Of a DNA stretch of 45,686 bases, positions 2-39,107 are shown piece by piece. This DNA comes from Nemertoderma westbladi (lineage: Eukaryota; Animalia; Xenacoelomorpha). Positions within the stretch are counted from its first letter, which is position 1, and every line of letters begins with the position of its first letter. Made by a program: the position numbers and the translations under genes. The DNA is taken from NCBI GenBank assembly GCA_032718475.1, contig JAUCBJ010004540.1, positions 1 through 45,686 of the forward strand, given 5' to 3'. A model generated the notes under the pieces. That model was given only the letters and a program-made list of their open reading frames with translations, made no database searches and was not told the origin of the DNA.

Positions 2-2602
2 CAAAGGCCTACTGAATGCTTTCCTACAGGGTATACAATTCCTAAGAACTTGGTTCAGAGCCCTACGAGGTTTATAAAAATAGTAGCGAGTTCGAATTTC
101 GCTCAGAACTCGTTCTCTACCAGCATGATACAGTTTGCTATGAACATCTACAATTATCTTGATCTGTATGTCAAGATTTCTGATGAGTATGGGGAACTTA
201 GTGTCAAAGGATAACGGGGCGTTGGTTAGCCGACCTCCAACACGTATTAACCCATCTATCATGGTACTAGAGAAGCGATCCCTTAAGCGCATCTGTGGAT
301 TTCTTAACAACAGGAAATACTTATCGGAATCCTCATAACATTGTAGAAGTCTCAGCATCTGTTTGTTGGTTTCATCATGCTCCTGGTAACTGATCTTCTC
401 CTTTAGAAACCTGTTGGATACCTTGTATTGGGGAAGATCTTTAACAACATGGACTCGTGCAGATGTTGATGGAGCATCATCACTATGGGTCTTTGTCCCG
501 GAGTAACGATGATGAAAACATCGTTTTAAATAGGTGACAGCTTTACAGAGCCGATTCCAGGAACTGTAGTGACGTATCGCTCTCTGCAAGAGAGGTGAGA
601 GTCCTTGCGAAATATCTGGTATTCCAGATTTCCAATCCTTGTCACGGATTTCCAAGACTTCTTTAGTCGTGGCGGTGGGTTTCTGATCCAAAGCATCCTC
701 TCCGGAAGTAAATAATACAGATAGATCAACCGCAGGTTTAAACAACTTCGATTTACTCGCTCGAGTTTTGGGTTTAACTTTCTCCGCTCCCTTGGCCTGT
801 CTGATCTCTGCTGTTGTGAGATGGGGAGGCCATTCTTCTTCTTCTCTGTAGAGAAAGTCGGGTCCTCCTAACCATTCGGGAGTATTTACCAATTCCTTTG
901 GAGTCGCTCCTCGGGACGCGATGTCTGCTGGGTTAATCGTTCCGGGGCAATGTCTCCATTGGTCCATCGTCGTGCGACTAAGTATGATGGCTACCCTGTT
1001 GGTAACGAAGACGCTGAACTGACAGACTTCATTGGTTATATACTCTAACACGAGTAAAGCGTCGGTCCAATAGACAGTTTTCTCTAATGTATAGTCAATC
1101 TGTTCGGTTACATTCCGGCCGATGGCTGTAGCGTATAGAGCCGCTTTTAACTCCGCTCGAGGAACTTTCAACTTGTTGTTGATTAATGCCTTAGAAGTAA
1201 CCAAGGCGACTTTGATTCCATCCGGAGTTTCCACTCTTAGGTAGGCTACTATACCGATTCCCATATCGCTGGCGTCTCCAAACACATGGAGTTGATAGGA
1301 ATACGTAGGGAGAACATGACCAAAATATGAACGGGAAATTATAAAATCCTCGATGGCTGGTAGAGAATCTTCCCATTTCATCCACTTCTTCAATAATTCT
1401 CCCTTAAGTGGATCGTCCCATGAGTGGTTTTCAAGCCACATTTGTTGTACCAAACTTCGAGCAATCAATATAACTGGGCTAATAAATCCCAATGGATCGA
1501 AATAAGTGCTCAGTATACTTAAGCAAATCCGTTTGGTTCGAACTGGATTATCTCGCTGTTTTAGTTGGAAAAACAGGATATCTCGCTCTGTGTCCCATTT
1601 CAAGCCGAGTGTCTTGGTTTCTGGCAGATCATCTTTGATCAAATCGAGATCTTTCGCTCCTCGATCTTCCGCAGGGATCGACTCCAGAAACTCACGGGAG
1701 TTGCTGGTGAATTTTGTTAATCGAAAACCACCTCTTTTTAAGCACTCTACCGTTCCTTTAGCGACCTCAATGGCTTCCTCAACTGATGGAAGGGACTTCA
1801 GATTGTCGTCCATGTATATGTCTCTCTTGATGTTGTCGATCACTTCCTTAGAGAAGGCCTCTCTGTTGTCCTCTGCAGTAGTACGCACTACCGAACAGGC
1901 GTTGGAAGGGCTTGAGATTATCCCAAAGGCCTGGATGGTCATCCAGTACTCCACCGGTTTCTGGTTGAGGTCTCCTTCGGGCCACCACAGAAATCGTAGA
2001 CTATCTCGATCCCTATCTAACACCTTGACTTGTAAGAACATGCCTTCTATATCGGAGGCGAAAGCAATAGAATATTGTCTCAATCTTAAAAGAATTCCCA
2101 ACAAAGATTGAAGCAAGTTGGGTCCGGGTAACAATTCAGAGTTAAGGGATTGACCCATGTAAAGAGCGGAGCCATCAAACACTACTCTCACTTCGTGTGG
2201 TTTACCGGGTTTAGGAACGTAATGGTGAGTTAAGTAATACGTTCTTTCAGTCACAGGTGTTTCTTCCGGTACCCTCTCCGCGTATCCCTTATTAATAAAT
2301 TTTTCCAGCTGTGTTTGATACATTGCTTTAGCTGAAGAATTAGCCGTAAGGCGTCGATGGAGTTGCGCGATTCTTTTTTCCGCCAAAGGTCTGTTATTGA
2401 TGAACTTCGGTTCTCTCTTGCGAAAAGGTAAACCGACTTCGTACCTTCCTTGATCTTCGAGGAAACGTGTAGTTGTCTCTTGGATCTGCTTGGCCCTTTC
2501 CTCTTCCACCGACAAGGCTTTATCGTAGGAATTGGGCTCTACCGCCTCTTGCGTAAAGAATCGTACGGCATGTTCATCCCGAGTCTTGGCATTGCATGAC
2601 GC
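2..2602 (-). CDS. pol: BEL/Pao pol (RT, RNase H, start of integrase); open frame running off the window start, absent from the ORF track
   Basis: Manual minus-strand translation is stop-free for 867 codons: GRYEVGLPF, RVVFDGS, SDIEGMFLQV, RFLWW, YMDD, KTLGLKW, FDPLG, LHVFGDAS, VPRAEL, YWTD, WRHCPGTINPADIASRG, GLIRVGGRL, and integrase H-x4-H...CIPC zinc finger. Confidence 0.93.
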
Positions 2603-5600
2603 TCAATGACGTCATTTAACTCGTCGTTATAAGCTTCTCGTTCAGATGGATAGAGAAGTTGACATAAGTTCACTTGGTTTTGCCAAGCCTCGTTTTCCTT
2701 AAGGAGATCGATGGTATTCTCCTCATCAAAAAGCTGGTGAACGTCGTCATTATCTGAGGAGTATGGAATTCCCTCAGTTGAGTTGTCTCCCTCACTGGTA
2801 TCATCTTCCCATTCACTCACCTGGCATACGCTCTCTTGCGGTAGTCTTTCTCTGAGTGTTCTACGGGAAGGGCCAGTAAAGTACCAACCTACTCTAGTTC
2901 TTACCGCATAGGTCTGTAGTGGCTGCGGTTGAGCAGGCCGTTTCTCTAATGTCTCCAGCGCCTCATGCGCGTTTTGGCCGATGAGTATTTGCACTCCAGG
3001 ATAATCAGTCTGGAATCGAGGTATGTTAAGATGTTGGATGCTCTCATCCTCGTCCCAATTATAAAGGTCTGCTTGAGTAGTAGCGAAGTTCTTTATAGCC
3101 ACCATTTTCACTGACCTTATGCTGTGTTCTCCTAGTTCGTCCTGGGGGGTGGACAACGCTCCTACATAATAATCAGCTGTTATTGTAGATTTCCAAACTT
3201 GCATAATGCCTGACATGTTGAGCTTAGTTTGGAACTTGGGTTGTCCAGCAAATATATCTTCGGCTAGCTCTTTGTCGATGAATGTTCCTGTACTACCGGA
3301 GTCAAGGAGGGCGTTCACTACATAACTCCTCTCAGGTCCGTGAACCCTTACTTGCACCACAGGAAACTCTCGGATCCCTACATTGGAAGATGGCTCTTTC
3401 CAAGATGGTTGTCGCTCAGAAGTAGTTAGAGTAAAGTCGTTGTCTGTATCTTTTTCATATGTGAGTGCTCGATACACTGCGGTATTTATCATGTAACAGG
3501 ATTCGTTTTCGTCGGAGAACTCGTCTGTATAGAATCCTTCCATCTCAGATTGATCAGTGTCGTTCACATCACTGAATTGGACATGTAACTCGGAATCACT
3601 CACCTGATTCGGACTATTTCGATCGAATTCAGCGTGCAACAAGATATGATGTTTCGCACCACACTTTGCACACCTTATGTCAGAGAAACAGGTTCGCCGT
3701 TGGTGTCCTTGTCTGAGGCAATTATAACATAACCGCTTATCCCACATGACTTCGCGTCTCTCTGTTAATGATTTCTTTAGAAATTCATCACACCTATTCA
3801 AATGGTGGGTCCCGTCGCACAGCGCACATTTCGGTTTGATGTTACTTACCTTATTTTGAGTCACATTGTGTACACTTGCCTTTTCTTCGGGTTTTCTCAC
3901 CTGAATTCTCTTGGGAGACGTGGGAGGAGTTTTTCTTACCTGTTCCCTCCTGTCATTTGTTCGAGACTTGAATTTACTTACCTGATCTTTAGGCATTTTA
4001 TTCACGTAATAAGATCTATCCGTGTCCTTCCCGCTATCTTCTCCTTGAGAAGTCTGGCTTTCGCCGTCGTCTGTATAACATACTGGTGTTACCTTTCTCC
4101 TAGAGACGGGTTTTTCACTTACCTTGTTTTCCGGTGTCTTCTCCCTAGACAGTTTCAGGAGCTGTAATTTCACTTCTCCATCTAGGAATGACATGAGATC
4201 AGCCATGGTAGGGTCTCGTCGTTGTTGTTCCATCATATATAACACTTTCTTATCCCAGCGTGTACCTACTCCACCTTTCGGTAAAGTAGAAGCCACTGCT
4301 CTAATAACCATAGTGTTCTGATACTCATGAGACTTACCTAGCCAATCTAATTGTCTGCAGATCTCCTGGATCTCATCGGAAAACTCGATAATTCCACTAC
4401 TAATAAACTTTCGGGGCGCTACTAACTTTGCATATAAGTACCCAGCGATATTATTCCTATTACCATACCTGATGTTTAGTGTATCCCAAACTTGTCTTAA
4501 TCCGTCTGGATGTCCAATAAACTTTAACGCCATTAACTTGGGAGATCCTTCCAAGCACTCGATGAGGTATCTAAGTTTTTCTCCATTAGATAGTACAGAG
4601 TTCTGTATGTTATCTTTGTAATATTCATTAAAAGGTAACCATTTCATCTCATCTCCATTGAACTTGACGATCTCTCCCACCTTTACCGCTTGCCGGGCTT
4701 CGGTTCTAGCCATTTGACGCGTAAAACTTTCTTGGGCCATCGTGTTATTTAATATCGAATTATCGGTATATAAATTTCTCGGATTATGATCAGTTCTATA
4801 GGGAATGTCATTATCAACAGGTCTATAATTACCCTTAATAGGGTTCACTATAGGAGTTTCTACTTCGCTAGCAGTATATATGCGTGTAGGCTCCACACCT
4901 TGCGCATGAGATACTTCAGACCTAACAGGTTGACACATTGTTACAGAGGGTGGTGGTATACCTCTTTGAGTATTTACTAATTTATCGCGCTCTAGCGCGA
5001 TACTTTGCTGCACTTCTTGCAACTCTAGCCTACTTTCCCTTACTGTGCCCTTGAACTGCTGGACAGTCTCCTGCATCTGTCCGAGCAGGATATCCATCCC
5101 CCGCCGTCCCTCGTCCACCCATTCGACCGCCGAAGCGGGAGTCGCCAACGTTGTAGCGGGCGGACGATGGACAACGGGCGACAAATTATGAATATTTCGC
5201 TCGGGGTCCAGGACCTGAACTGTCTCTGGGGGAGTTCTACGGGGCACAGGTAGCTTAGTGCTATGCAGAGGGAATTTAGAGATAACTTCAGGGAGCACAG
5301 GTGTGTCTATCACCGAAGGGGTGATTTCAAGAACAGGCCTAATTATTTCAGGCTCATCTACTATAGTAGGGAGTCTTTCTATTTTAATTATTTGGTCTGT
5401 GGGCTCTGTACTACCTAAGTTGGTGTTATTTAGTTGCCTTCTAACAGCTGGAGGCAAATCAGGCAATTTCTGACGGTGGAATGTTCTTTTATGTCTACTT
5501 AGACGAGATCTATTTCCTTTGCCTTCAGTATCGGTGGTATCGCCTTCCTCAGATGATGTATATCCCTGTCTTTTGGGAGTAGATCGATTCATCATCTGCA

Positions 5601-7053
5601 TATTACTAGCTGTTAACTGTTTATTTATGCAGTCTTGATTCTCCTGAATGTTTTCCAATTCTAATTGAGTGGTTTCTTCAGTCGCTCTCCATTCGGCTTC
5701 TGCCACTGCCTCCGCCGCTTTTGCCTCTGCCGCTGCCTCTGCTGCTGCCACTTTTCTTTCTGCTTCTGCAGCTGCCACTGCCGCTGCTACTGTCGCTTTT
5801 GCCTCTGCCGCTGCCTCTGCTGCTGCCGCTTTTCTTTCTGCTTCTGCAGCTGCCACTGCTGCTGCTACTGCCGCTGCCTTTCGGTCTTCTATACGTTTTT
5901 TCTTTACTTGTTCTTCTTGGACTCGTGTCAGGCGGAGTTGTTCATCAAATTTAGCCTGATTCGCAGCCCTCATTTCCACATCGATGGCATCCAACACAAG
6001 CTTGGTTCCTTCGCTATTAGGGCTAAGTCCATCTAACCTTCTTCTCAATTCGTCATCACCTAAAAAACGTTGATAGTCCGACAGATAGATGTCAATGGCA
6101 TCTCTCTTATGCGGCTTCTCTGCCGTCGCTTCACTTTCCACTTGGGAAAAAGTAGCGTCTGTTGATTCTCCATGGGTTGATCGCTCCTCCAGCTGAGCTT
6201 TCCACTGAGCTGTTCCTTGAACCTGGAGACTCACCCGTTGAAACCAAGTCTTTACGGCAACTTGCAACGACGTGTCTTGTTTTCGTTTAGAAGCCTCCTC
6301 AAAGGCTGATAAGATTAGCCTGATTCGTAGAATTCTTTCTCTAACTTGATAAAGCAGCAATCCCTGCTCTTGAGGTCCTTGAGGTTGTTGAAACAGTTGT
6401 TCTTTTAATCGCTCTATAGAGCTGAAGAATCCCTGTGCGTATCCAGCTGCGGACCTCTTCCACACAGCTGGATCGATGGTTTCCTTGGCTACTCCCATCC
6501 GGTGTATGTCTTCCCAGGCAGCTTCTGATAAATCAAACGGGAGTCCGGGTCCGGGGAAGTTCCATTGCGACTCGACCATGGACTTCAGTTCTTCTCTTGT
6601 GTATCCAGCATAACTATCTCTAGTTGAACGCTGGCTTCTCGCCCAATCGATCTGGTGTTCTTCCACAGCGATCAATAACCTAGTGAGTACGGCTGCAGGA
6701 AGGATGAGAAGGGGATCCGAATAAACCACATCCGTCATCCTTGCTCCGCGCTCGGGTGTCAGCTCTACAGTATCCTCACTACTGGAGCTGTTGGGCCGTT
6801 GAGAAGTAAGTTCTTGTATCGCGGGTTGTTGCTGTTCCGCTGCTTCTTGGTCCCGTTTGACCTGAGCTCGAGTGCCTATGATAGACCTACGATGTTGGAC
6901 CAGCCTAGGTTCTTTTATTACTACTGGAGGGATGACTTTCCTCACAGTGGGAGGTGAACTGAACCTACGACCAGACGGTTCTACGTCTCTATCTGAGTCG
7001 CAGATAGTTACATCTAATAAACTGTCTGACAGGTTCTGCTTAGAATCAGACAT
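2539..7053 (-). CDS. gag: BEL/Pao gag + aspartic protease, 1504 aa, with a very long N-terminal extension
   Basis: Capsid-like block from IVKFNGDEMKWLPF through LIECLEG and LNIRYG; BEL triple knuckle CALCDGTHHLNRC / CYNCLRQGHQRRTC / CAKCGAKHHILLH; protease ALLDSGS, ILIG, AVRTRVGW. Confidence 0.93.
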   Translation of the reverse strand: MSDSKQNLSDSLLDVTICDSDRDVEPSGRRFSSPPTVRKVIPPVVIKEPRLVQHRRSIIGTRAQVKRDQEAAEQQQPAIQELTSQRPNSSSSEDTVELTPERGARMTDVVYSDPLLILPAAVLTRLLIAVEEHQIDWARSQRSTRDSYAGYTREELKSMVESQWNFPGPGLPFDLSEAAWEDIHRMGVAKETIDPAVWKRSAAGYAQGFFSSIERLKEQLFQQPQGPQEQGLLLYQVRERILRIRLILSAFEEASKRKQDTSLQVAVKTWFQRVSLQVQGTAQWKAQLEERSTHGESTDATFSQVESEATAEKPHKRDAIDIYLSDYQRFLGDDELRRRLDGLSPNSEGTKLVLDAIDVEMRAANQAKFDEQLRLTRVQEEQVKKKRIEDRKAAAVAAAVAAAEAERKAAAAEAAAEAKATVAAAVAAAEAERKVAAAEAAAEAKAAEAVAEAEWRATEETTQLELENIQENQDCINKQLTASNMQMMNRSTPKRQGYTSSEEGDTTDTEGKGNRSRLSRHKRTFHRQKLPDLPPAVRRQLNNTNLGSTEPTDQIIKIERLPTIVDEPEIIRPVLEITPSVIDTPVLPEVISKFPLHSTKLPVPRRTPPETVQVLDPERNIHNLSPVVHRPPATTLATPASAVEWVDEGRRGMDILLGQMQETVQQFKGTVRESRLELQEVQQSIALERDKLVNTQRGIPPPSVTMCQPVRSEVSHAQGVEPTRIYTASEVETPIVNPIKGNYRPVDNDIPYRTDHNPRNLYTDNSILNNTMAQESFTRQMARTEARQAVKVGEIVKFNGDEMKWLPFNEYYKDNIQNSVLSNGEKLRYLIECLEGSPKLMALKFIGHPDGLRQVWDTLNIRYGNRNNIAGYLYAKLVAPRKFISSGIIEFSDEIQEICRQLDWLGKSHEYQNTMVIRAVASTLPKGGVGTRWDKKVLYMMEQQRRDPTMADLMSFLDGEVKLQLLKLSREKTPENKVSEKPVSRRKVTPVCYTDDGESQTSQGEDSGKDTDRSYYVNKMPKDQVSKFKSRTNDRREQVRKTPPTSPKRIQVRKPEEKASVHNVTQNKVSNIKPKCALCDGTHHLNRCDEFLKKSLTERREVMWDKRLCYNCLRQGHQRRTCFSDIRCAKCGAKHHILLHAEFDRNSPNQVSDSELHVQFSDVNDTDQSEMEGFYTDEFSDENESCYMINTAVYRALTYEKDTDNDFTLTTSERQPSWKEPSSNVGIREFPVVQVRVHGPERSYVVNALLDSGSTGTFIDKELAEDIFAGQPKFQTKLNMSGIMQVWKSTITADYYVGALSTPQDELGEHSIRSVKMVAIKNFATTQADLYNWDEDESIQHLNIPRFQTDYPGVQILIGQNAHEALETLEKRPAQPQPLQTYAVRTRVGWYFTGPSRRTLRERLPQESVCQVSEWEDDTSEGDNSTEGIPYSSDNDDVHQLFDEENTIDLLKENEAWQNQVNLCQLLYPSEREAYNDELNDVIERHAMPRLGMNMPYDSLRKRR

Positions 7054-7874
7054 GTCTATGTATACCGTTGAATGTCTACTGCTGTATTACAGTCTGAGCA
7101 AGTCTAGTAACTCAGTATGAACTGCTAGCCTAGTAATTAATTACCGATACTGCTACTCAGTGTAGCGTGATATATATATAATATATTAGAATACCGGTAT
7201 ACTTATGGTATATATAACTATATAAGTATTATTACAGACTAGGTTTATCACAGAATACCGGTATAATTTTAGCACCAATATATATAAATATATAATAGGC
7301 CTATCGGAATAGCGGTATACAGCTTACAGTTTGTAGTATATATAATTCTGGACTAGAATTAATTACAAGCACCGGTATAATTTCAGCCTAAATTTATAGA
7401 AATAAGATAATAGGCCTATCGTAAATACCGGTATATCAATTATTTTAATAATTGAATTTCTGAATTTTAGGGTTACTTGGTTACTTTAACTTACTTTATT
7501 GCCGTTAGTTAAGCAGTAGTCCAACTGATATTGAGACCTAATTGTTATATGGTAGGCCTACTACTTATAAATCGTTAGATTTGATTTATAATATATATAT
7601 ACCCGTTTTAATGGGTTTAGTCAATGTTTGAAATAAATGTTATTATTTCTGGGGAGTAATCACTACACAAAGCGGTGCGCTTTCAGTGAAGTGTTACTTA
7701 TAGGACACTAAAACAAATAATGCTAATTTACCTAAGTTACTTAATACTACAAATTACGTACAATTCGGGTTGAGATTACAATCTCTAAATAAACACAAAA
7801 ATTTACAAAAACACAAAATACGAATTTTTAGGGTAATTTTACAAGAATGAATTGAATAATAAATATTACGCTAC

Positions 7875-8430
7875 GCGTACAAACTACTCAAACAAAATGC
7901 AGACCGAACACTGACAGACTACTATCAAGCCTAAACAAACTACGGTATATGCAGACTCCGAAATAATTAGGTAGTATGCGTTCTAACCCAGTAGTACGAC
8001 TTATTCTTTAGTTGGGGGTTTACCTTACAGCATTCGCTGCCCCTACTTCCTAACCGTTCTTTATCGGACAAGTGATCTACACACGCTGCAATCCGTTCAG
8101 ACCTAGTAACAGCCAGACAACTATCCAGCCTACAAATTATCTAAATAAAATTATACGCTACCCGTACAGACTTACACAAACAAAGTACAGTCTAAACGAT
8201 GGCAGACTACTCTCAAGCCTAAATAAACTACAGGACATGCAGACTCCGAAATGATTAGGGAGTATGCGTTCTAACCCAGTAGTACGACTTATTCTTTAGT
8301 TGGGGGTTTACCTTACAGCATTCGCTGCCCCTACTTCCTAACCGTACTTAATCGGACAGGTGATCTACACACACTGCAATCCGTTCGGACCTAACAGCAA
8401 TCAGACAACAGCTCAGCCTACAAATTGTCT
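7875..8430. repeat. Two ~288 bp tandem repeats in the 5' leader of BEL copy A
   Basis: gcagactccg at 7951 and 8239 (period 288) with long identical cores; homologous pair in copy D. Confidence 0.9.
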
Positions 8431-8732: not shown

Positions 8733-8786
8733 AAGTTTACCGGTTGACCGGTATTTTCAACTTTATTGCTTACTGCAATAAAGAAG

Positions 8787-8800
8787 CATATATCCTTTAA
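8787..8800 (-). promoter_or_regulatory. Non-tRNA primer-binding site of BEL copy A (self-priming candidate)
   Basis: Sense ttaaaggatatatg directly follows the LTR end ...cgcgaaca and is exactly complementary to LTR positions 9563-9576. Confidence 0.75.
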
Positions 8801-10016
8801 TGTTCGCGCTTTCAGACCTTTGGCAGTTTAACCCGCCAAATTAAGATGTCTTCTAGATATTAAATCGCTTTTTAGTCTATGACAAGTATTTGATTCACTA
8901 CACTAGTCGAAACCAATCTGTGCGCGATCATTCACCCGCTGGATATTCCCGGGAGATTGGGTTCGACGGCTTAATTTTTATTGCTATGTAAGCCTAATGT
9001 ATTATTCGACTGACAGTATTATATAATCTCTGACAATATTATTCACCTTCGGGAATATTAACAGTTCCTTTAGGACGTGGCGCTTTATCTATATAAACAG
9101 AGTTATGACTTAAACTACTCACAACGATATGGCTCAATTATAATTCACATATATGGCGCATTCTTTAGGAATTGCTTCTTTAACAGACTCACTCATACAC
9201 AATGCTGCACAATACTGCACACTAATCTGCCAATCTTCACTGATTTTAGTCACATATAAAAGGAACACAGACTGACTCATGTAGGGTCTATCAAATAACA
9301 TTAGATTCACTTCAAACCACTTTAACATAAGTCACAATCGTTATTGGTAACCTTTCTCTCTTACCTTCGGTATATCAAGAATATTGGGTTTTCGGGGTTA
9401 TTTCTCGTTATTCCAATATAATAATTCATCAACCAATATAATGAATAACCGACAACAAATAGCAGTATACAGTATTGATTGAGCAGGTAATTTTTAGCAG
9501 TTTCAGCAGTTATTAAAAGCCGTGTGTCAGCAGTGATTACGAAATTGCAGTGATTCCATGAATTAAAGGATATATGTCCTTATAATTAAGCCTACTAGTG
9601 TAAGACTAAAAACTGAAAACACGGAGGTGCCAAAAGCCGGTTCTTAGGCTCTGGGCAAAAACATAACACTGAACTACTGAGTTTCTGTATACACCTCCAA
9701 CACAGAGACAACAAACGCTCTGATTGGTCAACCTGAACAACGAGAGAACAAAGAAACAAAGAAACGTCGACGTGGCAATATCAGCTGCTAGCCGTCGTCA
9801 TGGTAGCGACACTGTTTTCAAGAGTATCGAGCTTTTACGTCACGGAATTACGGATTATGTCCTCTAAAGTACAAATACAGAAGAAATAGCTTTTATGTCC
9901 GCTAAAACACCAGTACAGCAAGGACACGGCCTTTTTATGCCTGGTAAACCAACTACAGAGTATTTTACGGGAAAAATAAGGAAAAATAACCGGACAATTC
10001 AGCAAAAGCTTTTACA
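8801..10016 (-). repeat. 5' LTR of BEL copy A (1216 bp, TGT...ACA)
   Basis: Sense starts TGTAAAAGCTT and ends GAAAGCGCGAACA; the same termini delimit 1213 bp in the sibling copy (40782-41994). Confidence 0.8.
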
Positions 10017-10183
10017 CATTGGCCAGCCCACCTGTTCTCCCTATATTTATATTAATTGCACCATTATTAATTTCGCCCTGATTCATTACATTATTACTAA
10101 TGATATTATTTTAATTAAATTCTCCAGGGTTATTTAACATATTATTGTTACCTAAATTATTATTTAAATTATTTTGCTCAGAA

Positions 10184-10270: not shown

Positions 10271-10437
10271 CCGGGTAAAATATTATTTCCTGCAAGAAAG
10301 GTTTGATTAGGGTTGTCTATTACGGTACTATTAATATTACTCCCTCTAGCATATTACTATTATTACCCCCCCCCCCCCCCCCGCCCGTACGGTCACACCT
10401 GTCCTGGGTCTGTCGTCCAGTACCTGTAAGTGGGGTA

Positions 10438-11562
10438 TTAACAAAGGTTCACCTCTCTTGCCTCCCGCTCCTTGCACTCGTTCACCTCTCTTGTCTCCCG
10501 CTCCTTTCGTTCATTCTCTACTCTCGCCTCCCGCTCATTGCGCTCGTTTTCTACTCTCGCCTCCCGCTCCTCGCGCTCTTTGCACTCACTCATCTCTCTC
10601 TCCTCCCGCTCCATATAGTTTCTCGCCACCCTCTCGGCTCTCTCTTTACACTCTCTCGCTAATTCTCTCTCCCTCTCTAATAGTGCAGTTCCCTCATCTA
10701 ACTGCCTCTCCAGTTCCTTTTGATCCAGCGCCACAATGTCTAGTTGACACGCCAGATCTATCTCTAACACCGTTCTTGCTTTCGTGGAGGATGTAGTGGA
10801 CTTATCGGTTGCGACGGACTCCCGTCGCCTCTCTGTCCTACTAATTTTCCCCTGTTTACTGGGGTTCTTACTAACCGACGACACCGAATCCTCAGGGTTA
10901 ACCTCGGATTTGCCATCGTGCGGGTCCGCCCATCCCACTAACTTAATTCCCCTGGCATCCACTAGGTAAGGCCCTATGTACACTACATCTGGCTCCATTA
11001 CCTCGGACCGCCACAATTCAAACAGTTCTGTGGCGACCCCCCTCGCTCTCTCACTCGCCAGTTCTCCCTGTCCAAAACGGACTAAGTAACGGAAATGTTT
11101 ATTCGACTCACCTAGCCTCTGGTATAGTTTAGGCTGGTCTACCTTTCTCCCCTCCTTAGCCTCTTTCAGTAGTTTCTTCGTGGCATTGTATGCCCGTCAT
11201 AGGCGATCACTCGTCCCGATGTCCTCCTCGTTGACTCTACCTTCCCTCCTCGTCCGGCGTCGTACCGACGGCCCCACCGCCACCGTTCTGGTGGGCCATC
11301 CGTCGCCCTCCGCCTGTGGTTGGCTGGCGACTTCGGTACTCCAACCGCCGTCGTTGTCGCGCGTCGACTCGGTGTTGTCTTTCCCTCCTCGTTGTTGTCG
11401 GCCGCCCTCCGCTCGGGCATTCGGATCATCCCTCGTTGGCGAATCCGTGGTGGCAGGCCAGTACCGTCTCGTCGCGGCCTCTCGGATTGTTTGGTTGGTG
11501 TCATCCGGGGTCCGCGGTGGCGTTCTTTCTCCCTCTGATTCTCGGGGCGTTTGTTCACTCAT
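10438..11562 (-). pseudogene. Disrupted gag N-terminal region of copy B
   Basis: ORF pieces 11197..11562 and 10438..11016, separated by stops or frameshifts; no capsid or knuckle domain retained. Confidence 0.5.
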
Positions 11563-11610
11563 CTTTGTTTGTTGCGGTCACAGTCCATTGTAAGCTGGAT
11601 AGTTTTTAAC

Positions 11611-12137
11611 TGTGACTGGATCTGAGATCCCGACCGGGTAAGATTTGTACGCATCACGTAACTGCTGGTCTGCTGGGCTAGTGTCCTTTTGGCTGAAGGT
11701 CGTTGGGGAAAAATAACAGAGTTTGTGTTTCTCGATGTTAATGTTCCAATGATAATAGCACAGAATGTATGACAGTATATGATTGAAATTGCAATACAGA
11801 ATTACAACAGCAGTGTGTAGAATGACTGTTAAAAACTATAACCGGTCTGCAACTCTGTGATTAATGAACTGACCGGTAAATCAGTAATCAGGATAACTAT
11901 ATGATTGATACACATAGATATTGGTTTCACCTCTACTCTACTTGGCCTTCTGTACCCAATGGATGCTTTCCTATCTTTCCCCACGTGCTCCCCTGCCTGC
12001 TATTGGCTTATATACTAATTGTCACTTTGGCACTCCCTGTGAGTGTTACCCCCTGCCGCTAGCCTTGACTAGCTGCGTTCCCCCTGTGAGGTGGTTTGAC
12101 CTCTAACCTCTCTCTGTGGCTTTAGGGCCTGTGTCAA
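11611..12137 (-). repeat. Putative 5' LTR of copy B (~527 bp)
   Basis: Plus-strand ends tgtgac...gtgtcaa (imperfect terminal inverted repeat); minus-strand TATATAA at ~12008-12014; the adjacent 12-mer (11599-11610) is complementary to 11828-11839. Confidence 0.6.
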
Positions 12138-12194
12138 CCCCCCCCCCCCCCCCCCCCCCGAGTTGGTTATGGGGCGAGATTCTTATTGGTAATC

Positions 12195-12314: not shown

Positions 12315-14648
12315 GTGGTACCTCAGTTTCTAGCCTTCAAGGTACCTCCATCTCACCCTTTTGCAGAACCTGATGCTATTCGGGCCTTTCAGCTGCGGTT
12401 GCTAAACAAAACCATAGCTAGGAGGGTGAATGAGCTGATTGCTGCAGAGGGTCGTGTGGAGAGTACCAAGCATCACCTTGCCACTCGACTGGGAGATGCT
12501 CAGCTGATTGAGGAGGCCGTCTGCCAGGCTAACACCTGGTGCGACGGTAAACTCGACCAGTGGAGAGCTGACCAGGACGAGAAGTTTAGGTGGTGGGCCG
12601 GATGCCAAGGGACGCCATTACTTAATGTCCAAGGCACGGTGCGGTGTGAGGATGGGATTGTTCTACCTGAGACGGTTGAGACTGTGCTCAGACTTGGGGC
12701 CAAGAATCCGGTCAAAACCAAGTTTGACACCACTCTCTTCTACTCCCAGGTAGATTATTTCACCCGCGCGACCGATGCTGACAAAGTAAGTATGTCACAC
12801 CATTACCAGAATTATGCCAGGTTATTGCGCTTACAGTGGCAGTCTGATGCTGTCGCTACCACAGCCCATTACCTGAAGCAGCAGGGCCTGATTGCTGTGC
12901 CGTTTGACAAGGGTAATGGCTATTGTATTATGAGGAAGGAGTCGTATCTGGCCAAGGCTGATACACTCATCGCAGACCCGGCTAAGTTTGGTCCACCTCC
13001 CGGTCATCCTATTGCTGTTAAGGGCTGTACCGTCGCAGGGCCGAGGTTATACGGAACGAGGTCACCAGTATTGTAGGTAAGGAGAGTAAGGAACTCCTAG
13101 CGAAGTTACTTCCGCGCTAAGATACTACTCCCCCGAGGCTGTATGACCTCGCCAAGGTCCACAAGGCTGGTGTCCCTCTCCGCCCAATAACTTCAATGCC
13201 CGGCAGCATCTTCCACGCTGTCGCTGAGTACCTCAGGGACATGTTGCAGGTGCTGCCAGAGGGTAGGATTGGTACTAACAGCGCCGGGGCTGCCGATCGT
13301 CTCGCTGAGCTGGATGTAGAACCCACGGACCGCCTCTACTCCCTGGACGTAGTTAGTTTATTCACTAACGTTCCACTCAAGGAGGCGGTGCAGCTTGCTG
13401 CTGATCTACTGTACGAGCAACATCCTGACCAGCCTATCAACAAGGACCAATTTATTCGTCTTATGTTGGTTGCTACACAGGATGTTGTATTCCTGGATCA
13501 CCGTGGTAACTACCGTTGTCAGAGGGATGGTGTCGCCATGGGCTCCCCTTTGGGTCCCATACTCGCCAACATCTTTCTGTCACAGTTCGATGAGCAGATT
13601 GCGGCGGGTACCAAGCTTAGCGATAGGTACGTTGATGACGTGTTTAGCGTTGGTAGTAACGACCCCACTGAGAAGCTGAGAGAGGTCAATGCCCTCCACC
13701 CCAATCTTAAGTTTACACTTGAGTTGGAGGAACAGGGCCGCTTGCTTTTCCTTGATTTGGTTGTGTCCCGTACTGACCACGCGCTTGCGACGGCATGGTA
13801 CCGCAAGCCTACAGATACTGGGCTTGTTCTTAATGCTACTGCGTGTGCCCCTGAGGCATACAAACGGGGGGTAGTTCGTGGAATGTTTCATCGCATTTTC
13901 AATAAGGATGTAAGGGCGGGGATGGCTCCCAGCTCCATTCTGCAATTGGCGAAGCTAACACCATTCTTAGCAATAACCAATATACAAATGCGATGATTCA
14001 ACGCGAGCTTACCGCCGTCCGTGCCGCTAGGGGGCGTCCTGGCAATTGTAGTGAGAGCGAGGTGACTGCGGTTGCACCCACTGAGGTCATTGACCTGGTG
14101 GATCCAGCACCCGTAGATAATCCCAGGCCTATCATCTGAAGTTTGAGTACCGCGGTCGGGCTACCAAACTTTTCGTTCGTAGGCTACGTGGTCTAGTACC
14201 GAGATCTTGCGCACGGCCAGTGCGGTTTGTTTACACAACTGCCAAACTGCGCCAATCACTGCCATCATTGAAACATCGGGTTCCCGATATTCTGGCTTCT
14301 AACGTCGTGTATTCATTTGCTTGTCCCTCTTGTAAGGGGGAATATGTTGGACATACCATCCAACACTTATTTGAACGCGTTAGACAGCATCAGGACGGGT
14401 CGGCCAATGATGGTAGTGAACAAGGCAAGACAGTTCACAACCATATCATGACGCACTGCGGGGAGCCCAACACACGTTGGTTGACTGACTGGCGAGAGTT
14501 GTTCAAACACTTCAAGGTTATTGCACGGCACCCTTTGCGTCCTGTCCTGCAAAAACTAGAAATGTTTTATATACACACTCGCCAGCCAGCTATTAACAAG
14601 CAGAAACGTGATTGGCGCAAGTTTGAGGTGCTGCTTCCCAGTGGTTAG
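12315..14648 (+). pseudogene. Penelope RT-GIY-YIG polyprotein split into three ORF pieces
   Basis: ORFs 12315..13076, 13196..13996 and 14220..14648 are consecutive parts of one protein; the frameshifts are visible against copy 2. Confidence 0.9.
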
Positions 14649-14721
14649 ACAGATATACCTTGTTTCACTTTACCGTGCCGTCTCCCTTGGAACTTCTATA
14701 TATTGTCTCCTTTCTAGCACT

Positions 14722-14819
14722 AGCTACTTGAGAAAGCCCCCATTGGGGCGAAACCTACTGATCAGCTGACAGCCGTCAGCTGATCACTGATTGCATGCAA
14801 CGTCTAATGGTCAGTTGCT
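14722..14819 (+). ncRNA. Variant type I hammerhead ribozyme motif of Penelope copy 1
   Basis: agctac-UUGAGAAA-gcccc(catt)ggggc-GAAA-cc...gg-UC-agttgct: U3:A8 core variant, 5-bp stem II, GUC triplet at 14810-14812, stem I agctact/agttgct. Confidence 0.7.
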
Positions 14820-14917
14820 TTTTTATTTTAGTATTTGTATCGTACTGTACTGGCATACCTACCGGTAAGGTTTTTTACTTCAGCTTGACAATTAAAGAAT
14901 AAAATAACAACAGCTTA

Positions 14918-15323
14918 GTTACTACTACAAGGTCGAGTGAACTTGGACAGTGGAAATGAGATCCTTCCAGGCTTCCCGATTCTCCATAGTTGTCGCAATT
15001 TCGTTTCTCCCAGTTCAGTATCCCTTTCAAGTTGATCTATATATGTTATGGCTGGTCGTCCATGACTACGCTTTCCATGAGTTGGTTGCCAGAGAAGTAG
15101 ATATGGTATGACCTCGTCTTTACTTCGCCAGCAGTGCCCACTGAATCTTAATCTTCGTTCACGGAGGGTGGTTGATACAGGTGGTATTGTACCATAAAGC
15201 TCGGTGTTTGTCATCTGTTGTCTCCAGCTGATGTTTAGGGCTGCCCTTAGTAGTCTTGTGTAGCAACCATCTATTCGTTGTTCAAGTGATTTAGTCAGTG
15301 TCCAGGTCTCACCCCCGTATAAG
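14918..15323 (-). mobile_element. RTE-clade LINE 3' fragment with short (TAG)n tail
   Basis: LYGGETWTL...TRLLRAALNISW...TNTELY...RRLRFSGHCWR...LLLWQP.HGKR.HGRP is the RTE RT C-terminus; tail gtagtagtaa at ~14919-14928. Confidence 0.88.
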
Positions 15324-17937
15324 GCCGAGGAGATAGGGTTGCAAACGAGGCTGAGTAGGATGGCAGTAACTACTATCGCGAGCAAGGATGAGGTCCTGGA
15401 GATGAGAACGGGACGGTGCGAGATATCAGCAATAGCACCTGGATGTGATTATGGGGCGACCATCGACCCCATTCAAATAATAGAATCAATTAATATAAAC
15501 GCCAGGCGGCCCACCAGGATCGAGGTCGAGCAATACTGGTTCCTGGACGATATCGATTCCTCAATACCCGAAGTGGACGTCCCGAAGGTATCCATCATAG
15601 TCGGTATGGACTGTCCGACGGCCCACGAGAGAGTACGGACTATATTCGGAGAAAATAAACAGAGGGATCTGATGGCGATTCTTACGCCGTTCGGATGGAT
15701 GCTTAGCGGCCCAATTAAAACCAAGATTCCATTCGGGGTGTCGGAGACATCAGGGTGCATGTTTGCAGGCACAATGAGGGAGATGGAGGATGAAGGAGCA
15801 GAGGAGCAACTTAAGAGGCTGCTGCGGCAGGACTTCGAAGGATTAGAGGAGGCCTGGGTCGGAACCTCGGTAGAAGACAAACAAGCGATAGAGAGCGTAA
15901 AGAATTCTATGAATTGCAGAGGGGGACGGTACACCATAGGGATTGTGTGGAAACAACCAAAGCTACCGTTACCAGATAACAAAGGGATGGTACTCACGAG
16001 GCTCCGCAAACTGAAGCAGACGCTCAGACGGAGCCCCGAGAAGGACGAGTATATCCACAAAACAATTAGGAAATATGTTGAAAAGGGATGGGCCGTGGAG
16101 TTACCGGTCGACGAGCCAAACACGGACAGGACCTACTATTTGCCACGGCACGTGGCCTTGGATCCGAGGAAGGGTAAACTGTGGATGGTGGTCAACGCGT
16201 CGGCCAAAACGAATGGCAAAAGCCTAAATGACTATCTGCTGGAGGGCCCCAACATCTACAACTCGGGGATAGAGGTCCTGTTGCAATTCAGAAATGGAAG
16301 GCATGCCTTCACGTGCGACATTGAAGGCATGTTCAACCAAGTCCGTATGACAGAAGAAGACAGCGATAGTCAGCGCTTCCTATGGTACAACGGCGACGAA
16401 AAACCGTCTGAGATACCGATGTATAAAATGGCGGTGCAAAACATGGGGGCCAAGTCATCCTCATTCACAACAACTACGGCTGTAAGAGATACGGTAGAGG
16501 GCAAGGAAGGAGAGTATAGTGCAAAGGCGAGCGACATGATTCGACTTTCTATGTAGATGACGGGATGGGATCTGGAAACATGGTTGAAGAAATACTGGAG
16601 ATAAGGCGCGAGGTTCGCGACATCCTAAAAGGATCTGGGTTCAACCTTACTAAGTTCCAGTCCAGCTCTGAGGAATTTATGAAGGCCATAGAAGACAAAC
16701 GACCAGAGTCAACCAATGGACAATCCCACAACGGCAAAGGGACAGGTTTTGGTGAACAAGAGAGTGGAGTCTCAGCAAAAGGCACTAGGGATCGTGTGGA
16801 ACCGGGAGACGGACGAGTTGGAGTATCAACTAACCCAAGAGGGCGCAGAGATCCACACTAAGCGGGTTATGTGTCGTACATAGCAAGGATATACGATCCC
16901 CTAGGCCTAGCATCCCCATTGTTAGTCACGGGGAAGCAAATATTAAAGAAAGTATATAAGTTAAAGGATGAGTGGGATGCGGAGGTCCCGGAAGAAATAA
17001 GTAGACAGTGGAGTAAGTGGACGGGGGGTCTAGAGGAAATGGGGATGTACAGCATGCCATGCGTGTATTTCCCGTACGGAAACATGACGGACCTGGATCT
17101 GCATATGTTTTCCGATGCATCATTGAAAGCGTATGGAGCGGCACTTCATTTGGTACAGCGACGGGGGGCTCATATGCCCATACTTGCATTTAGTAAAGCG
17201 AAGTCGACGCCACCAGATTCAACATCAGTGCCGAAACTCGAGCTGACAGCTGCGAGGTTAGGAGTAAGGGCGACAGCTTACTTGATGGACACTATACCCA
17301 ACATAGTGGAGACACACTACTGGACGGACTCCATGGTAGTGTTAGGGTGGCTACATAATGAGAAGACAAGGTACCCTATATTCGTCGCAAACAGGATAGA
17401 TGAGATAAGGGTGACGACTGATCTAGAAAGGTGGCATTACTGCCCTACCGATGACAATTCAGCAGATCTGTTATTGAGGGGCGTTGGACGCCGCACTTTC
17501 TCGAAGAAGGAAGAGGAAGTAGTAACAGAAGAGGAGGGAGAGGATTCAGAAGGGGAAGAGATATACAGCCAGTTAGCAGGGAGATCAAGGAGGTGCCACC
17601 GAAATCGAAGGAACTATGCGATAATCCGTCGGATAGGTTGCTCAGTTACAGCTCCAGCTGGTTCAAGACTAAGAAGTTGGTAGCATATTTGTGGGCCTAT
17701 GGGGATTTCCTCAGGGGAGTTGGCAAGGATACCAAAAGGACACCAACCATCGATCTGGAAGGAGCGGCTAAAGCCGTAATACGATATGAACAAAGAAAGG
17801 GGTATGCCGACGAAGTGGACAGAGTCAGCAAGCAACAACACCTTCATCGAGACAGCGAGCTCAACACGCTGTCCTCGCAGTTGAACGACGGCGGGATACT
17901 GGTGATGAATTCCAGAGTGGTGAACAACAACAGCTTA
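15324..17937 (+). pseudogene. pol: BEL/Pao pol fragment (copy C: partial protease, RT, RNase H), frameshifted; a different family from copy A
   Basis: AILTPFGW, GRYTIGIVWK, YYLPRH, SLNDYLLEGP, CDIEGMFNQV, RFLW, FYVDD across a frameshift at ~16548, IYDPLG, LHMFSDAS, VPKLEL, YWTDS, WHYCPTDDNSAD. Confidence 0.92.
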
Positions 17938-17943
17938 ATTAAT

Positions 17944-18060
17944 AATTAAATGCTTGAGTTAATACAATTATTTTATTCTTTAATTGTCAAGCTGAAGTAA
18001 AAAACCTTACCGGTAGGTATGCCAGTACAGTACGATACAAATACTAAAATAAAATAAAAA
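17944..18060 (-). repeat. Inverted Penelope 3' end (inverted pLTR) at the 5' junction of copy 2
   Basis: Reverse complement reproduces ~14820-14907 essentially exactly and continues with ttgtattaactcaagc, similar to the copy-2 tail at ~20873-20888. Confidence 0.9.
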
Positions 18061-19650: not shown

Positions 19651-19717
19651 CCGACACTGAACATGTCGTCAACATACCTTTCACTGAAAGGTATGTTGAC
19701 GACGTGTTCAGTGTTGG
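19651..19717. repeat. 33 bp-arm inverted repeat with a 1-nt centre
   Basis: ccgacactgaacatgtcgtcaacatacctttca-c-tgaaaggtatgttgacgacgtgttcagtgttgg (2 mismatches). Confidence 0.95.
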
Positions 19718-25400: not shown

Positions 25401-27564
25401 ACTGCTTTCAGAAGGATGGTGTCGCCATGGGTTCCCCATTGGGTCCCATACTCGCCAACATCTTTCTGTCACAGTTTGACGAGCAGATCACAGTGGGTAC
25501 CGAGATTAGTGAAAGGCAGGGACGGATTAAGGGGGGGGCAACAGGGGCAGCTGCAGGGGGCCCGTAAGTTGGAAGGGGCCCGCAAGTTGGGAGAAATTTA
25601 CCGAACATTATCTCACTGATAAAACAACCTCATTTATTTATTAATTTCTGGCTGTTCAATAAATATTTAGAGTATATCTCACATATAGCCTCACCATTCA
25701 GAGCACTGTGTCCCATAGAATGTTTAAAGTGTTTTAAAAAAATATTTTAAGTGTAATGTAATGCTTAAAGGAAAACGTTAGCAAAAAAACAAAATTAACC
25801 AAAAAAAAAAAATGTTAATAATAGTAAACTATTACTGTATTACAATTAACATTTAATTTACCTTTCAATTAATATTATCTGAAATCATTCACGAGTTCAG
25901 TAGGTTAGGAAATTGCTATTTTTAAGTAATTTTGTGTCTAATTTATTGATATACCAGTATATTATTCGTTCCTAAATATAGAATTGATGTCTTTTGGATG
26001 GTGTAATTTTAGGAAAAAATTAGTATTATTTAAATAATCAAGGACTATTATTCGATAAAAAAAAGTAAGCGGAAATCACCGCTTTTTTAACAGATATTCA
26101 ATTTAGCGAAATTCAACTATGTTTTTTTTTTTTTTTATTCAACTGTTACGTTTTTATATCGAATATATTGTTTTATTTGAAAAAAATATTACCAGCGTTA
26201 CTTATTTGTACCAACGGGGACCAAAATTTTTTGCAATTGGTTTTCGTCGGGGAGGGGGGGGGGGGGTAGGGGCCCGTAAGTTGCGACTGCCGGGGGCCCG
26301 AAAATCCATAATCCGTAAGCCGACACTGAACACGTCGTCAACATACCTTTCACTGAAAGGTATGTTGACGACGTGTTCAGTGTTGGTAACAACGACCCCA
26401 CTGAGAAGTTGAGAGAGGTCAATGCCCTCCACCCCAATCTTAGGTTTACACTTGAGTTGGAGGAACAGGGCCACTTGCCTTTCCTTGATTTGGTTGTGTC
26501 CCGTACTGACCACGCGCTTGCAACGGCATGGTACCGCATGCCTACAGATACCGGGCTCGTTCTTAATGCCACTGCATGTGCCCCGGAGTCATATAAACGG
26601 GGGGTAGTTCGTGGAATGTTTCATCGCATATTTAACGTCAGTAAGGGCGGGCGGGGATGGCTCTCAGCTCAATACTGCAATTGGGGAAGCTAATATTATT
26701 CTTAGCAATAACCAATATACAAATGCGATGATTCAGCGTGAGCTTACTGCCGTCCGTGCCGCTAGGGGGCGTCCTGGCAATAGTAGTGAGAGTGAGGTAA
26801 CTGCGGTTACACCCTCCGAGGTCATTGACCAGGTGGAGCCGAAACCGTCGGAAAATCCCTGGCCCATTATCTGTAAGTTTGAGTACCGCGGTCGGGCCAC
26901 CGAACTTTTTGTTCGTAGGTTGCGTGGTATAGTACGTTGTTTATTCTTTATCTTGTCCAGCTTGTAAGGGGGAATATGTTGGACATACCATCCAGCACTT
27001 GTTTGAACGTGTTAGACAGCATCAAGACGGGTCGGCCAATGATGGTAGTGAACAAGGCAAGACAGTTCACAACCATATCATGACACACTGCGGCGAGCCC
27101 AATACACAGTGGTTGACGGACTGGCGTGAGTTCTTCAAGCATTTCAAAGTAATTGCACGGCACCCATTGCGGCCTGTCCTGCAAAAACTTGAAATGTTTT
27201 ATATACGCACGCGTCAGCTCGCCATTAACAAACAGAAATGTGATTGGCGCAAGTTTGATGTGCTGCTTCCCAGTGGTTAGACAGATACACTTCTACCTTG
27301 TTTCACTTTACCTTTCTTTCTCCCTTGGGAACTTCTATCTATTGTATCCTTTCTAGCACTAGCTACTTGAGAAAGCCCCCATTGGGGCGAAACCTACTGA
27401 TCAGCTGACAGTTGTCAGCTGAGCACTGACTGCATGCAACGTCTAAAGGTCAGTTGCTTTTTTACTGTTTTATTTGTACTGCATACCTACTGGGAAGGTT
27501 TTTACTTCACTGCTTGACAATTAAATAAAAGTACCACTATATTGCATTAACTCAAGCTTTTTAA
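25401..27564 (+). mobile_element. Penelope-like copy 3 (duplicated 3' half of copy 2, including MITE 25517-26316 and palindrome 26320-26386)
   Basis: Identical ORF pieces at 26373..26693, 26611..26967 and 26999..27280. Confidence 0.93.
27361..27458 (+). ncRNA. Variant hammerhead ribozyme motif, duplicated copy
   Basis: Identical to 20692-20789. Confidence 0.7.
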
Positions 27565-37379: not shown

Positions 37380-39107
37380 TCAATTTTGATTGCTTTGCTT
37401 CAATATTGTTGCATCTCTAACGGCTTTTACCCAATCGGCTTTGAGTTCAGGTGTATCGCATCTGAATATCAGTACACCAACTCCACTGTGGGATATCTTG
37501 AATACTAAGGGCGCCAGACTTGAGTCAACTTCAGGCACACTTTCTTCCACTGTATATCCTAGCAACGGTCTGTCATCCTGCGCCCTGGGGTCTCCACGGT
37601 TCTTAAGCTTGTACAATACCCAGCCATGCAGCTCAAACCAGTACTCTTTCCATACTCCTCTTCTTTTCAGTAGCTTCAGTGATCCACTCATTTCTACCTT
37701 ATCCCGTTCTGAAACCACCAACGTTTTCGCATCCGAGGCCTCTTTCACTTCCTTGAATTTCTTGCTGAAAAGTCCCTGGAGACATTCAATATCATCACCA
37801 ATATTATCAGTAATAATTGGCTGATACTTTTCAGGGAATTCTCCCCTTCCGATGACATCATACAGTTTCTTGTGGCAGTAACTACAAACGCGGCAAACTT
37901 TCCAGGATTTATAGAGAATAGGCGCTTCAAAATCTGAACAAGTACCACAGACAACCTTGCCGCATATACGGCAGTGATGGCGTCGGTTGAATCTCGTGAA
38001 ATTTTGCAGTTTACACAGCTGACACATGCTCGTTTGGTTGTCTTCTATCCAATGAGGTGCTACTGCTCCCGGGAATTCGTTTGTATCGCTCTTTTTCATG
38101 GCATTCCCATCTACGCTGAATGAATCTAGCTTCTCCCAAAGGGTAGATTTTGCACATTCGATGGTGGATATCCACTCATCTCTTTCTTTCCGAGTTTCAA
38201 CAAAAAAATCATATGCTTCAGGCAATCCCGGCCCTGTAATAGAAAACCAATTACCAGTGTCCAGGTGCATCGGTGGGGCAGTAACTATGACTTGTTCAAT
38301 TGGAATGTCTATACTAATACTTGTGTCATTTTTTATGCAAAGAAGTTTATCAGAAAAAAGATATAAATCTCTTGGTTGATTTTCCTTTAAATTTGTTGGG
38401 TATCTTTTCAGTACACGTCCATATTTAATAATGAATCTTCCTGGTGTAAATATATTTACCTTTCTGTTAGATTTCTCTAGTTTTTTTTGCAGTTCCAAGA
38501 GTTTATTTGAATTTACATCTTCTGCCTCTATCTTGACGTGGAGATCATTAATTCCACTTATAATGAGTAAAGTAGCTTTTACATTCTCTTTTTCATCCTT
38601 TTCACTTTCAGACAAGACTTTTTGGTAATCTTTAAGCAGTTGCTCGTGCTTGTGTACCCTCCATATTGGTTCCTCCAGCCTTCGTCTCAGGTCCATTTTC
38701 CGATCCCTCAAATCGTCCTTATTACCACCTCCTCTAATATATTTTTTTTCAAACTCCACCACAAATGCCTTAAACTGTTTATTTTGTTTCATTGCATTGT
38801 CAAATACTTTTATTGCATATTGAGATCTGTTATTGATAAAATTCGCAGTCATTTTAAGCATAAAGATGGCATATTTTCTATATACATCCGCTATCTTAGG
38901 AACTATATGCCAGTTATCAGCTCTCTCCTGGAGTTCTTTTGATAATCCCTCACTTAGTTTTAAAAGATTCTCGAACAGATTCATGATTATGTTCAACTGA
39001 CTTTTTTCAATAATCGGATTTCCATTTATTCTCCTGGCATCAATTTTCTCCTTAAATGTGTTTATTAGGCGCAAATTATTTAGATATTCTAATTCAGTGA
39101 TTGCCAT
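37380..39107 (-). CDS. FGD: FGD/frabin-family protein: RhoGEF (DH)-PH-FYVE-PH in one uninterrupted ORF; the true start may lie further upstream
   Basis: DH: TELEY...L, LFENL, LEEP.WR...LLKDY; PH ending ERDEWISTI; FYVE WIED/CQLC/RRHHCRICG.VVC..CS/RVC..C; second PH with WKEYWF, LY, PLLGY.V, W..A. Frame stays open 32 codons upstream of the ATG. Confidence 0.92.
   Translation of the reverse strand: MAITELEYLNNLRLINTFKEKIDARRINGNPIIEKSQLNIIMNLFENLLKLSEGLSKELQERADNWHIVPKIADVYRKYAIFMLKMTANFINNRSQYAIKVFDNAMKQNKQFKAFVVEFEKKYIRGGGNKDDLRDRKMDLRRRLEEPIWRVHKHEQLLKDYQKVLSESEKDEKENVKATLLIISGINDLHVKIEAEDVNSNKLLELQKKLEKSNRKVNIFTPGRFIIKYGRVLKRYPTNLKENQPRDLYLFSDKLLCIKNDTSISIDIPIEQVIVTAPPMHLDTGNWFSITGPGLPEAYDFFVETRKERDEWISTIECAKSTLWEKLDSFSVDGNAMKKSDTNEFPGAVAPHWIEDNQTSMCQLCKLQNFTRFNRRHHCRICGKVVCGTCSDFEAPILYKSWKVCRVCSYCHKKLYDVIGRGEFPEKYQPIITDNIGDDIECLQGLFSKKFKEVKEASDAKTLVVSERDKVEMSGSLKLLKRRGVWKEYWFELHGWVLYKLKNRGDPRAQDDRPLLGYTVEESVPEVDSSLAPLVFKISHSGVGVLIFRCDTPELKADWVKAVRDATILKQSNQN

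Follow-up and report, generated by a model that had tools for sequence, protein, structure and literature searches.

The 45,686-nucleotide (nt) stretch of Nemertoderma westbladi DNA analyzed here (contig JAUCBJ010004540.1; the whole stretch is referred to as the window) presents an animal-type repeat landscape. It contains two long terminal repeat (LTR) retrotransposons, copies A and D, in which the primer-binding site (PBS) has its complement in a segment of the element's own LTR. A preliminary description of the same DNA had proposed that such elements prime reverse transcription from their own transcript and not from a transfer RNA (tRNA). The comparison with related elements reported below makes this reading probable for A and D, and suggests that in most of the relatives tested the complement would be assembled by removal of a predicted intron.

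Element class and LTR ends of copies A and D

The two copies comprise the following features within the window:

8801-10016, minus strand: copy A 5′ LTR (1216 nt, TG...CA), with ends common to copy D and supported by contigs
2539-7086, minus strand: copy A gag-protease frame (DUF1759, by Pfam)
2-2602, minus strand: copy A frame for reverse transcriptase (RT), ribonuclease H (RNase H) and integrase (Peptidase_A17), overlapping the gag-protease frame and leaving the window
40782-41994, plus strand: copy D 5′ LTR (1213 nt, TG...CA)
44517-45686, plus strand: copy D gag, leaving the window

Pfam analyses of copy A revealed a Pao-type gag domain (DUF1759) and a Peptidase_A17 domain in the RNase H region, the order of domains being protease, RT, RNase H and integrase. 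The pol product returned 59 protein matches at E≤1e-50, most of them bearing the Pao Pfam domain (best identities 26-45%), and the acidic residues D184, D443, E484 and D514 of RT and RNase H are invariant in a 25-protein alignment that includes A. Copy D is classified through its gag, which shares 75% identity with that of A, its pol lying beyond the window. Judged by their predicted proteins, copies A and D are BEL/Pao (Belpaoviridae) LTR retrotransposons; the proteins of copy A are not those of the Ty3/gypsy chromovirus RT lineage that holds the Tf1/sushi elements.

Both LTRs were judged on the 5′ copies, the 3′ ends lying outside the window. They begin with the same 11 nt (TG) and end with the same 12 nt (CA). 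Contig depth in runs X1, X3 and X4 drops approximately 400- to 800-fold across the start of the copy A LTR, from bin 9891-10021 to bin 10022-10152, and one X4 contig begins precisely at 8801, the 3′ edge of this LTR. The drop near 10020 and the contig start at 8801 thereby provide independent support for both ends of the copy A LTR.

Three further observations concern these elements. The gag-protease and RT frames of A overlap by 64 nt (2539-2602), while many relatives have a single frame, which may indicate either a break or a programmed frameshift. The 1.7-kb leader common to A and D contains a 287-nt tandem duplication (7861-8430 and 42383-42949). A third BEL/Pao pol fragment at 15264-17950 (plus strand) is broken, has no LTR and forms a long branch apart from A.

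The primer-binding sites of A and D are complementary to their own LTRs

The sites under study are:

8787-8800, minus strand: copy A PBS, without TGG, directly after the LTR
9563-9576, minus strand: copy A candidate self-primer, LTR positions 441-454
41995-42007, plus strand: copy D PBS, directly after the LTR
41233-41245, plus strand: copy D candidate self-primer, LTR positions 452-464
42072-42121, plus strand: second, diverged copy of the D LTR end together with PBS and leader hairpin, at a distance of 84 nt downstream of the first

The TGG that would be expected of a tRNA-type PBS is missing from the 30 nt that follow the LTR of either copy, and no tRNA gene was detected in the window using ARAGORN and Rfam. 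The PBS of copy A forms 14/14 Watson-Crick pairs with the LTR (8800-8787 against 9576-9563), or 15 when the last LTR base is counted, and that of copy D forms 13/13 (41995-42007 against 41233-41245). In dinucleotide shuffles of each LTR of A, D and the putative element B described below, the observed pair length was reached in 0 of 5000 trials (maxima 12, 11 and 10 nt, respectively), and swapping PBS and LTR between A, D and B shrank the complement to 4-6 nt (5-6 nt for A and D). Of the 5407 CA sites in the window, 13 precede a stretch of at least 12 nt that has a complement in the 1.3 kb upstream; in 7 of these, A and D included, the stretch reaches at least 13 nt. Although only 5 of 13 ungapped positions are the same in the PBSs of A and D (8 differ), both duplexes are perfect, the changes being matched on both sides. 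A and D thus each carry a perfect, co-varying complement at the LTR edge.

These results bear out the preliminary description as to the missing TGG-type PBS and the exact 14-nt complement of A, the different 13-nt pair of D, segment ends at LTR positions 454 and 464, and a 3′ end of the LTR-derived strand that falls at the junction between the PBS and U5 (the unique 5′ region of the LTR) or, through the fifteenth pair in A, 1 nt into U5. Its statement that the D pair occupies the homologous LTR position fared less evenly: the two segments share an upstream motif, but the primer stretch is poorly alignable, MAFFT and a pairwise aligner placing it approximately 30 columns apart.

A second 10-nt match between leader and LTR in A (offset 12) is absent from D and was treated as a chance match. 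In the duplicated region of D (41988-42121), the second PBS differs from the first by two changes and retains an 11-nt pairing with the D primer. The stretch directly 3′ of the A primer segment (9460-9562) is highly variable among run contigs, with stretches replaced or skipped; at position 9562 most run contigs differ from copy A and read G.

Related BEL/Pao loci carry a complement that spans predicted introns

A metagenome scan for relatives, from which the best 80 of 465 confirmed matches were used, yielded 78 BEL/Pao loci, a sample biased toward the relatives of A. A direct repeat flanked pol in 35 of the 78, and in 18 loci the LTR 3′ end was fixed by both repeat copies. We set aside the 43 loci without a flanking direct repeat, locus L077 (a 2.6-kb tandem repeat) and six loci in which the repeat was not at the LTR end. 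An exact 31-nt LTR pattern gave no metagenome matches, leaving no close LTR relatives for comparison, and two scans of viral contigs returned no relative.

Twelve of the 18 fixed-end loci, representing nine families, share the geometry of A and D with one difference: the PBS matches the element's own LTR over 10-15 nt, but across a GT..AG gap of 67-186 nt. Leader shuffles reached these spliced matches in 0 or 1 of 400 trials. Among the other fixed-end loci, L052 has a contiguous 10-nt PBS match to its own LTR (0/400 shuffles), while L020, L060 and L078 have a TGG-type PBS and no self-match. L069 is ambiguous, combining a TGG at +2 with a 10-nt match over a GT..AG gap of 78 nt whose donor is weak. 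Among 10 loci whose LTR end remained open, 8 also gave spliced matches, 10-14 nt in length (none in L035 and L042); those of L006, L043, L058 and L067 beat all 40 shuffles, whereas 2-9 of the 40 shuffles equalled those of L003, L016, L031 and L074.

The junctions of the nine families were picked by complementarity alone. GTAAG donors occur in 8 of the 9 families, compared to 15 of 151 background GT[AG] sites (binomial P≈8e-8), and the mean pyrimidine content of the acceptors is 0.75 at predicted junctions compared to 0.59 in the background. The predicted primers of the nine spliced families have AC or AT as their 3′ end, at a distance of 0-3 nt from the LTR edge. When folded with a short first exon, the spliced RNAs of eight of the nine families were predicted to form the duplex with a mean probability (P) of 0.4-0.99, and unspliced RNAs were mostly without it. 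The duplex was not predicted for L040, and for L037 only with the short exon.

Since the complement is split in the DNA of nine families and arises only after a splice-like join, the pairing would operate at the RNA level, which favors self-priming of the Tf1 type. That the complement of these families is absent from their DNA and yet always predicted at primer distance from the LTR end is, in our view, the strongest argument for a primer drawn from the element's own RNA. The core of the preliminary description thus receives strong comparative support from complements to the own LTR, but it had not recognized that the complement bridges a predicted splice junction in most of the relatives tested. 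L002 and L005 both have a pyrimidine-rich TAG positioned 13 nt upstream of the predicted donor, as if a 13-nt micro-exon held the 5′ part of the primer.

The best spliced complements of A and D are only 8 and 7 nt long and were equalled by 103/400 and 102/400 controls, respectively; no GTAAG-type donor lies upstream of the primer segment in either. As predicted from their LTRs, A and D are the contiguous, intron-free form of the self-complementary PBS.

Phylogeny of the relatives

The RT tree comprises 37 rows, with six insect proteins across the root; untyped loci, seven near-duplicates and the two longest branches were omitted. Long branches meet at the root, and both root and sampling are weak. 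The three families with a TGG-type PBS form one clade (100/96) nested with two spliced families (98/99), and a 31-row group (100/100) contains this clade, the remaining spliced families and A. L052 is placed among spliced families (99/91), and L069 groups with spliced families at low support. The inferred pattern is in line with self-priming as the ancestral state, tRNA priming having been locally regained. A tree of BEL/Pao rows cannot decide whether self-priming originated independently here, as the preliminary description had supposed. It contains no named references for clades such as Sinbad, Suzu or Sailor and hence assigns the elements to none of them.

Predicted folding of the LTR transcript

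Folding of the A and D transcripts brings the following elements into consideration, all on the minus strand of copy A:

8922-8927: LTR hexamer predicted to form, with 8809-8804 beside the PBS, a side duplex like that of the Tf1 pretzel (fold P 0.64; identical in D)
8819-8840: predicted U5 hairpin of 8 base pairs (bp), retained in D via two one-sided changes
8761-8783: predicted leader hairpin directly after the PBS, 9 bp in A and 8 bp in D
8977-8982: sole AATAAA of the A LTR, which follows the primer segment at a distance of 580 nt and is not kept in D
9089-9364: candidate GT-AG intron on the 3′ side of the primer segment, with a counterpart in D at 41424-41675 (plus strand)

With a 45-nt leader, the duplex between primer and PBS was predicted with a fold P of 0.97 in A and 0.92 in D when the RNA started within 10 nt of the segment, and of 0.48 and 0.68, respectively, with 40 extra 5′ nt. 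The modeled folds favor a transcript start within approximately 40 nt of the primer segment. Compared to the three-duplex pretzel of Tf1, the central and U5-side duplexes are predicted, and the leader side would fold into its own hairpin instead. The hexamer of the side duplex is invariant between A and D and hence lends it no support by covariation. If the candidate intron of the A and D LTRs were spliced, the loop between primer and PBS would be shorter by about 250-275 nt.

A proposed self-priming model for A, D and their relatives

Self-priming is known from Tf1/sushi elements and Tcn1. In Tf1, the RNA's initial 11 bases anneal to the PBS, with RNase H cleaving between base 11 and base 12, as described in PMC7175516, and the RNA adopts a three-duplex structure around the PBS (bioRxiv 2022.12.06.519325). 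We consider it probable that A and D likewise prime the minus strand with a segment of their own LTR-derived transcript, with a predicted cut at its 3′ edge, and not with a tRNA. Transcription would begin at or shortly before the primer segment, which would then fold over approximately 750 nt onto the PBS, framed by the U5-side duplex, the U5 hairpin and the leader hairpin. Cleavage just 3′ of the duplex would follow, most probably by the RNase H that the element encodes, the enzyme at work in Tf1; the predicted positions are 9563/9562 (in sense orientation) or one base further in A and 41245/41246 in D. RT would then extend the new 3′-OH into U5.

In most of the tested relatives, removal of an LTR intron by splicing would complete the primer complement. 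With the cut placed in the second exon, strong-stop DNA would lack the junction, and we infer that an unspliced 3′ copy could then pass the intron on; if that copy were spliced, contiguous forms such as A, D and L052 would result. On this basis we tentatively propose, as a reading with somewhat less than an even chance, that a large BEL/Pao branch was ancestrally self-primed by a spliceosome-assembled primer from an intron-split LTR, in which only the spliced 5′ copy would pair with the PBS, that the intron-free elements A, D and L052 are derived from this state, and that tRNA priming was regained once within the group.

The likeness to Tf1 has limits. According to PMC6317226, bioRxiv 2022.12.06.519325, PMC4600332 and PMC7175516, the elements Tf1, Tf2 and Tj1 and other Tf1/sushi members (Ty3/gypsy chromoviruses, including plant Tcn1) resemble A and D in lacking a tRNA site, in having a PBS directly after the 5′ LTR that pairs with a comparably long LTR segment, and in extra stems beside the PBS. 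Unlike them, A and D have a BEL/Pao RT, a 750-nt loop in a 1.2-kb LTR and a counterpart to only one side duplex. The primer is known to be the first RNA bases in Tf1, whereas in A and D it is a predicted LTR segment, and most of their tested relatives differ from Tf1 in that the complement spans a predicted intron. By analogy, A and D could at most work like Tf1; they are not members of Tf1/sushi. The preliminary description had tied self-priming to that group, but it is also predicted for the Copia TAR lineage in passages of PMC6317226: the PBSs of Houba and Osr-1, outside Tf1/sushi, are predicted from sequence to be self-complementary, like those of A and D. Unlike the A/D group, these are plant Ty1/copia elements, and the same passages mention no splice junction. 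The tRNA-type BEL/Pao loci L020, L060 and L078 share with A and D the superfamily, TG...CA LTRs and a PBS a few bases past the LTR, but their PBS starts with TGG and has no self-match, and they form one clade nested among self-complementary families. Cer7-type BEL/Pao elements of Caenorhabditis elegans reportedly encode their own primer RNA, said to be a tRNA-like sequence in the internal region, as opposed to the LTR segment of A and D; a full-text literature search returned no paper on such an RNA.

Several observations weigh against self-priming in A and D or against its extension from the relatives. With 100 extra 5′ nt and the 45-nt leader, the duplex falls to a P of 0.00-0.03 in both copies, a 70-nt leader lowers that of D to 0.05-0.23, and the duplex is weak or not predicted for copy B and L040. 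Only one of the two side duplexes of Tf1 has a counterpart. The D segment opens with TATAAA, and could therefore sit upstream of the transcript start; a TATA also lies within or beside the segments of A and B. Matches between families reach 10-11 nt, making the lone 10-nt cases (L017, L021 and L052) borderline, and L019, whose PBS is the same as that of L017, gives no match in its 3′ LTR, where it appears to have been lost. Finally, the branch of copy A is long and its place in the related group is not resolved, which makes the extension of the model from the relatives to A and D an argument by analogy.

Alternative explanations

An element-encoded primer acting in trans is unlikely. Such a primer would be a separate, short RNA started in an LTR, with a solo LTR, a 3′ LTR or early termination as its source, that ends at the segment and involves neither fold-back nor an RNase H cut. 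The loop of A and D spans approximately 750 nt and their cis fold is fragile, the abundance of the family in the DNA runs renders LTR-derived RNAs plausible, and the conserved AC or AT 3′ ends are compatible with any processing rule. However, in A and most of the spliced families the segment is followed downstream by a poly(A)-like hexamer, arguing that the segment is not a normal RNA 3′ end, and the conserved stems around the PBS recall the cis structure of Tf1. An RNA 3′ end as primer was likewise not favored, because the AATAAA lies downstream of the segment.

We also doubt that the pairing serves as a structural switch, for packaging, dimerization, translation or protection of the PBS, while another molecule such as a tRNA fragment does the priming. 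Half-tRNA PBSs lacking TGG are described for Copia lineages in PMC6317226, and in copy B a 7-bp stem between U5 and leader competes with the pair. Yet A, D and ten other families have distinct PBSs, each matching its own LTR with a 3′ end 0-3 nt from the edge, every one of which would also require its own host RNA, and the three TGG families have no self-match.

It is very improbable that the segment is a TATA-like promoter element of U3 (the unique 3′ region of the LTR) and the match a DNA-level inverted repeat or chance event: the TATA motifs in or beside the segments of A, B and D and the 13 CA sites of the window that reach 12 nt fit this explanation, but the 0/5000 shuffles and the A-D changes matched on both sides do not, and in nine related families the complement, split by 67-186 nt with splice-like ends, cannot pair as DNA.

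Significance of the proposed self-priming in BEL/Pao elements

Priming of reverse transcription in BEL/Pao elements is barely addressed in the literature: a search of the main texts of PMC554778, PMC3118150 and PMC2996953 found no mention of a PBS or tRNA, although the supplements of PMC3118150 could bear on the claim. A full-text search for BEL/Pao self-priming or a splice-built primer returned no paper by its title or the start of its abstract, subscription papers, Repbase and GyDB lying outside its scope. Further literature around the question includes PMC5445492, PMC6934838, PMC8220671 and PMC7472051. If the proposed model is correct, self-priming would extend to a third LTR superfamily and, with 10 or 11 of 14 families, be the majority state in this sample. 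The replication of these retroelements would then be linked to host splicing. Self-priming would also give freedom from tRNA supply and from control by tRNA fragments, and explain how PBS finders based on tRNAs could miss such elements. It would also bear on the proposal, made in PMC3601003, that self-priming is older than tRNA priming, and it supplies exact predicted RNA ends and junctions.

Copy B and other features of the window

The preliminary description had counted a third pair, in copy B:

11611-12137, minus strand: putative LTR of copy B, with inferred ends
11828-11839, minus strand: segment complementary to the PBS (12/12 pairs)
11599-11610, minus strand: PBS-like site, pairing with 11839-11828

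The pair itself was recovered in full (12/12, 11610-11599 against 11839-11828), and the first TGG occurs at +24 after the putative LTR. Membership of BEL/Pao did not follow, as no relative of B was found in Pfam, Atlas, the 78 BEL/Pao loci, a set of collected proteins or two large searches. Copy B has no pol, only an orphan gag-like frame with a charged repeat, interrupted by a stop. As the LTR end is not independently fixed, the pair is weak taken alone, and as a predicted self-primer signature it is suggestive only. A spliced complement of 10 nt was rejected for B, being shorter than its contiguous 12-nt match. Two long G runs (minus strand) flank element B at 10366-12160, and the 350 nt past the second run are unlike the B LTR.

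Elsewhere in the window, two Penelope-like RT copies each contain an inverted repeat (26323-26383 and 19651-19717) whose arms match perfectly over 30 bp and are separated by 1 nt. The repeat sits where the match to the copy at 12846-14899 breaks, and may record a fold-back or template switch. An uninterrupted 607-amino-acid RhoGEF-FYVE-PH frame, FGD-like by its Pfam domains, lies among the repeats at 37380-39203 (minus strand) and is possibly a retrocopy.
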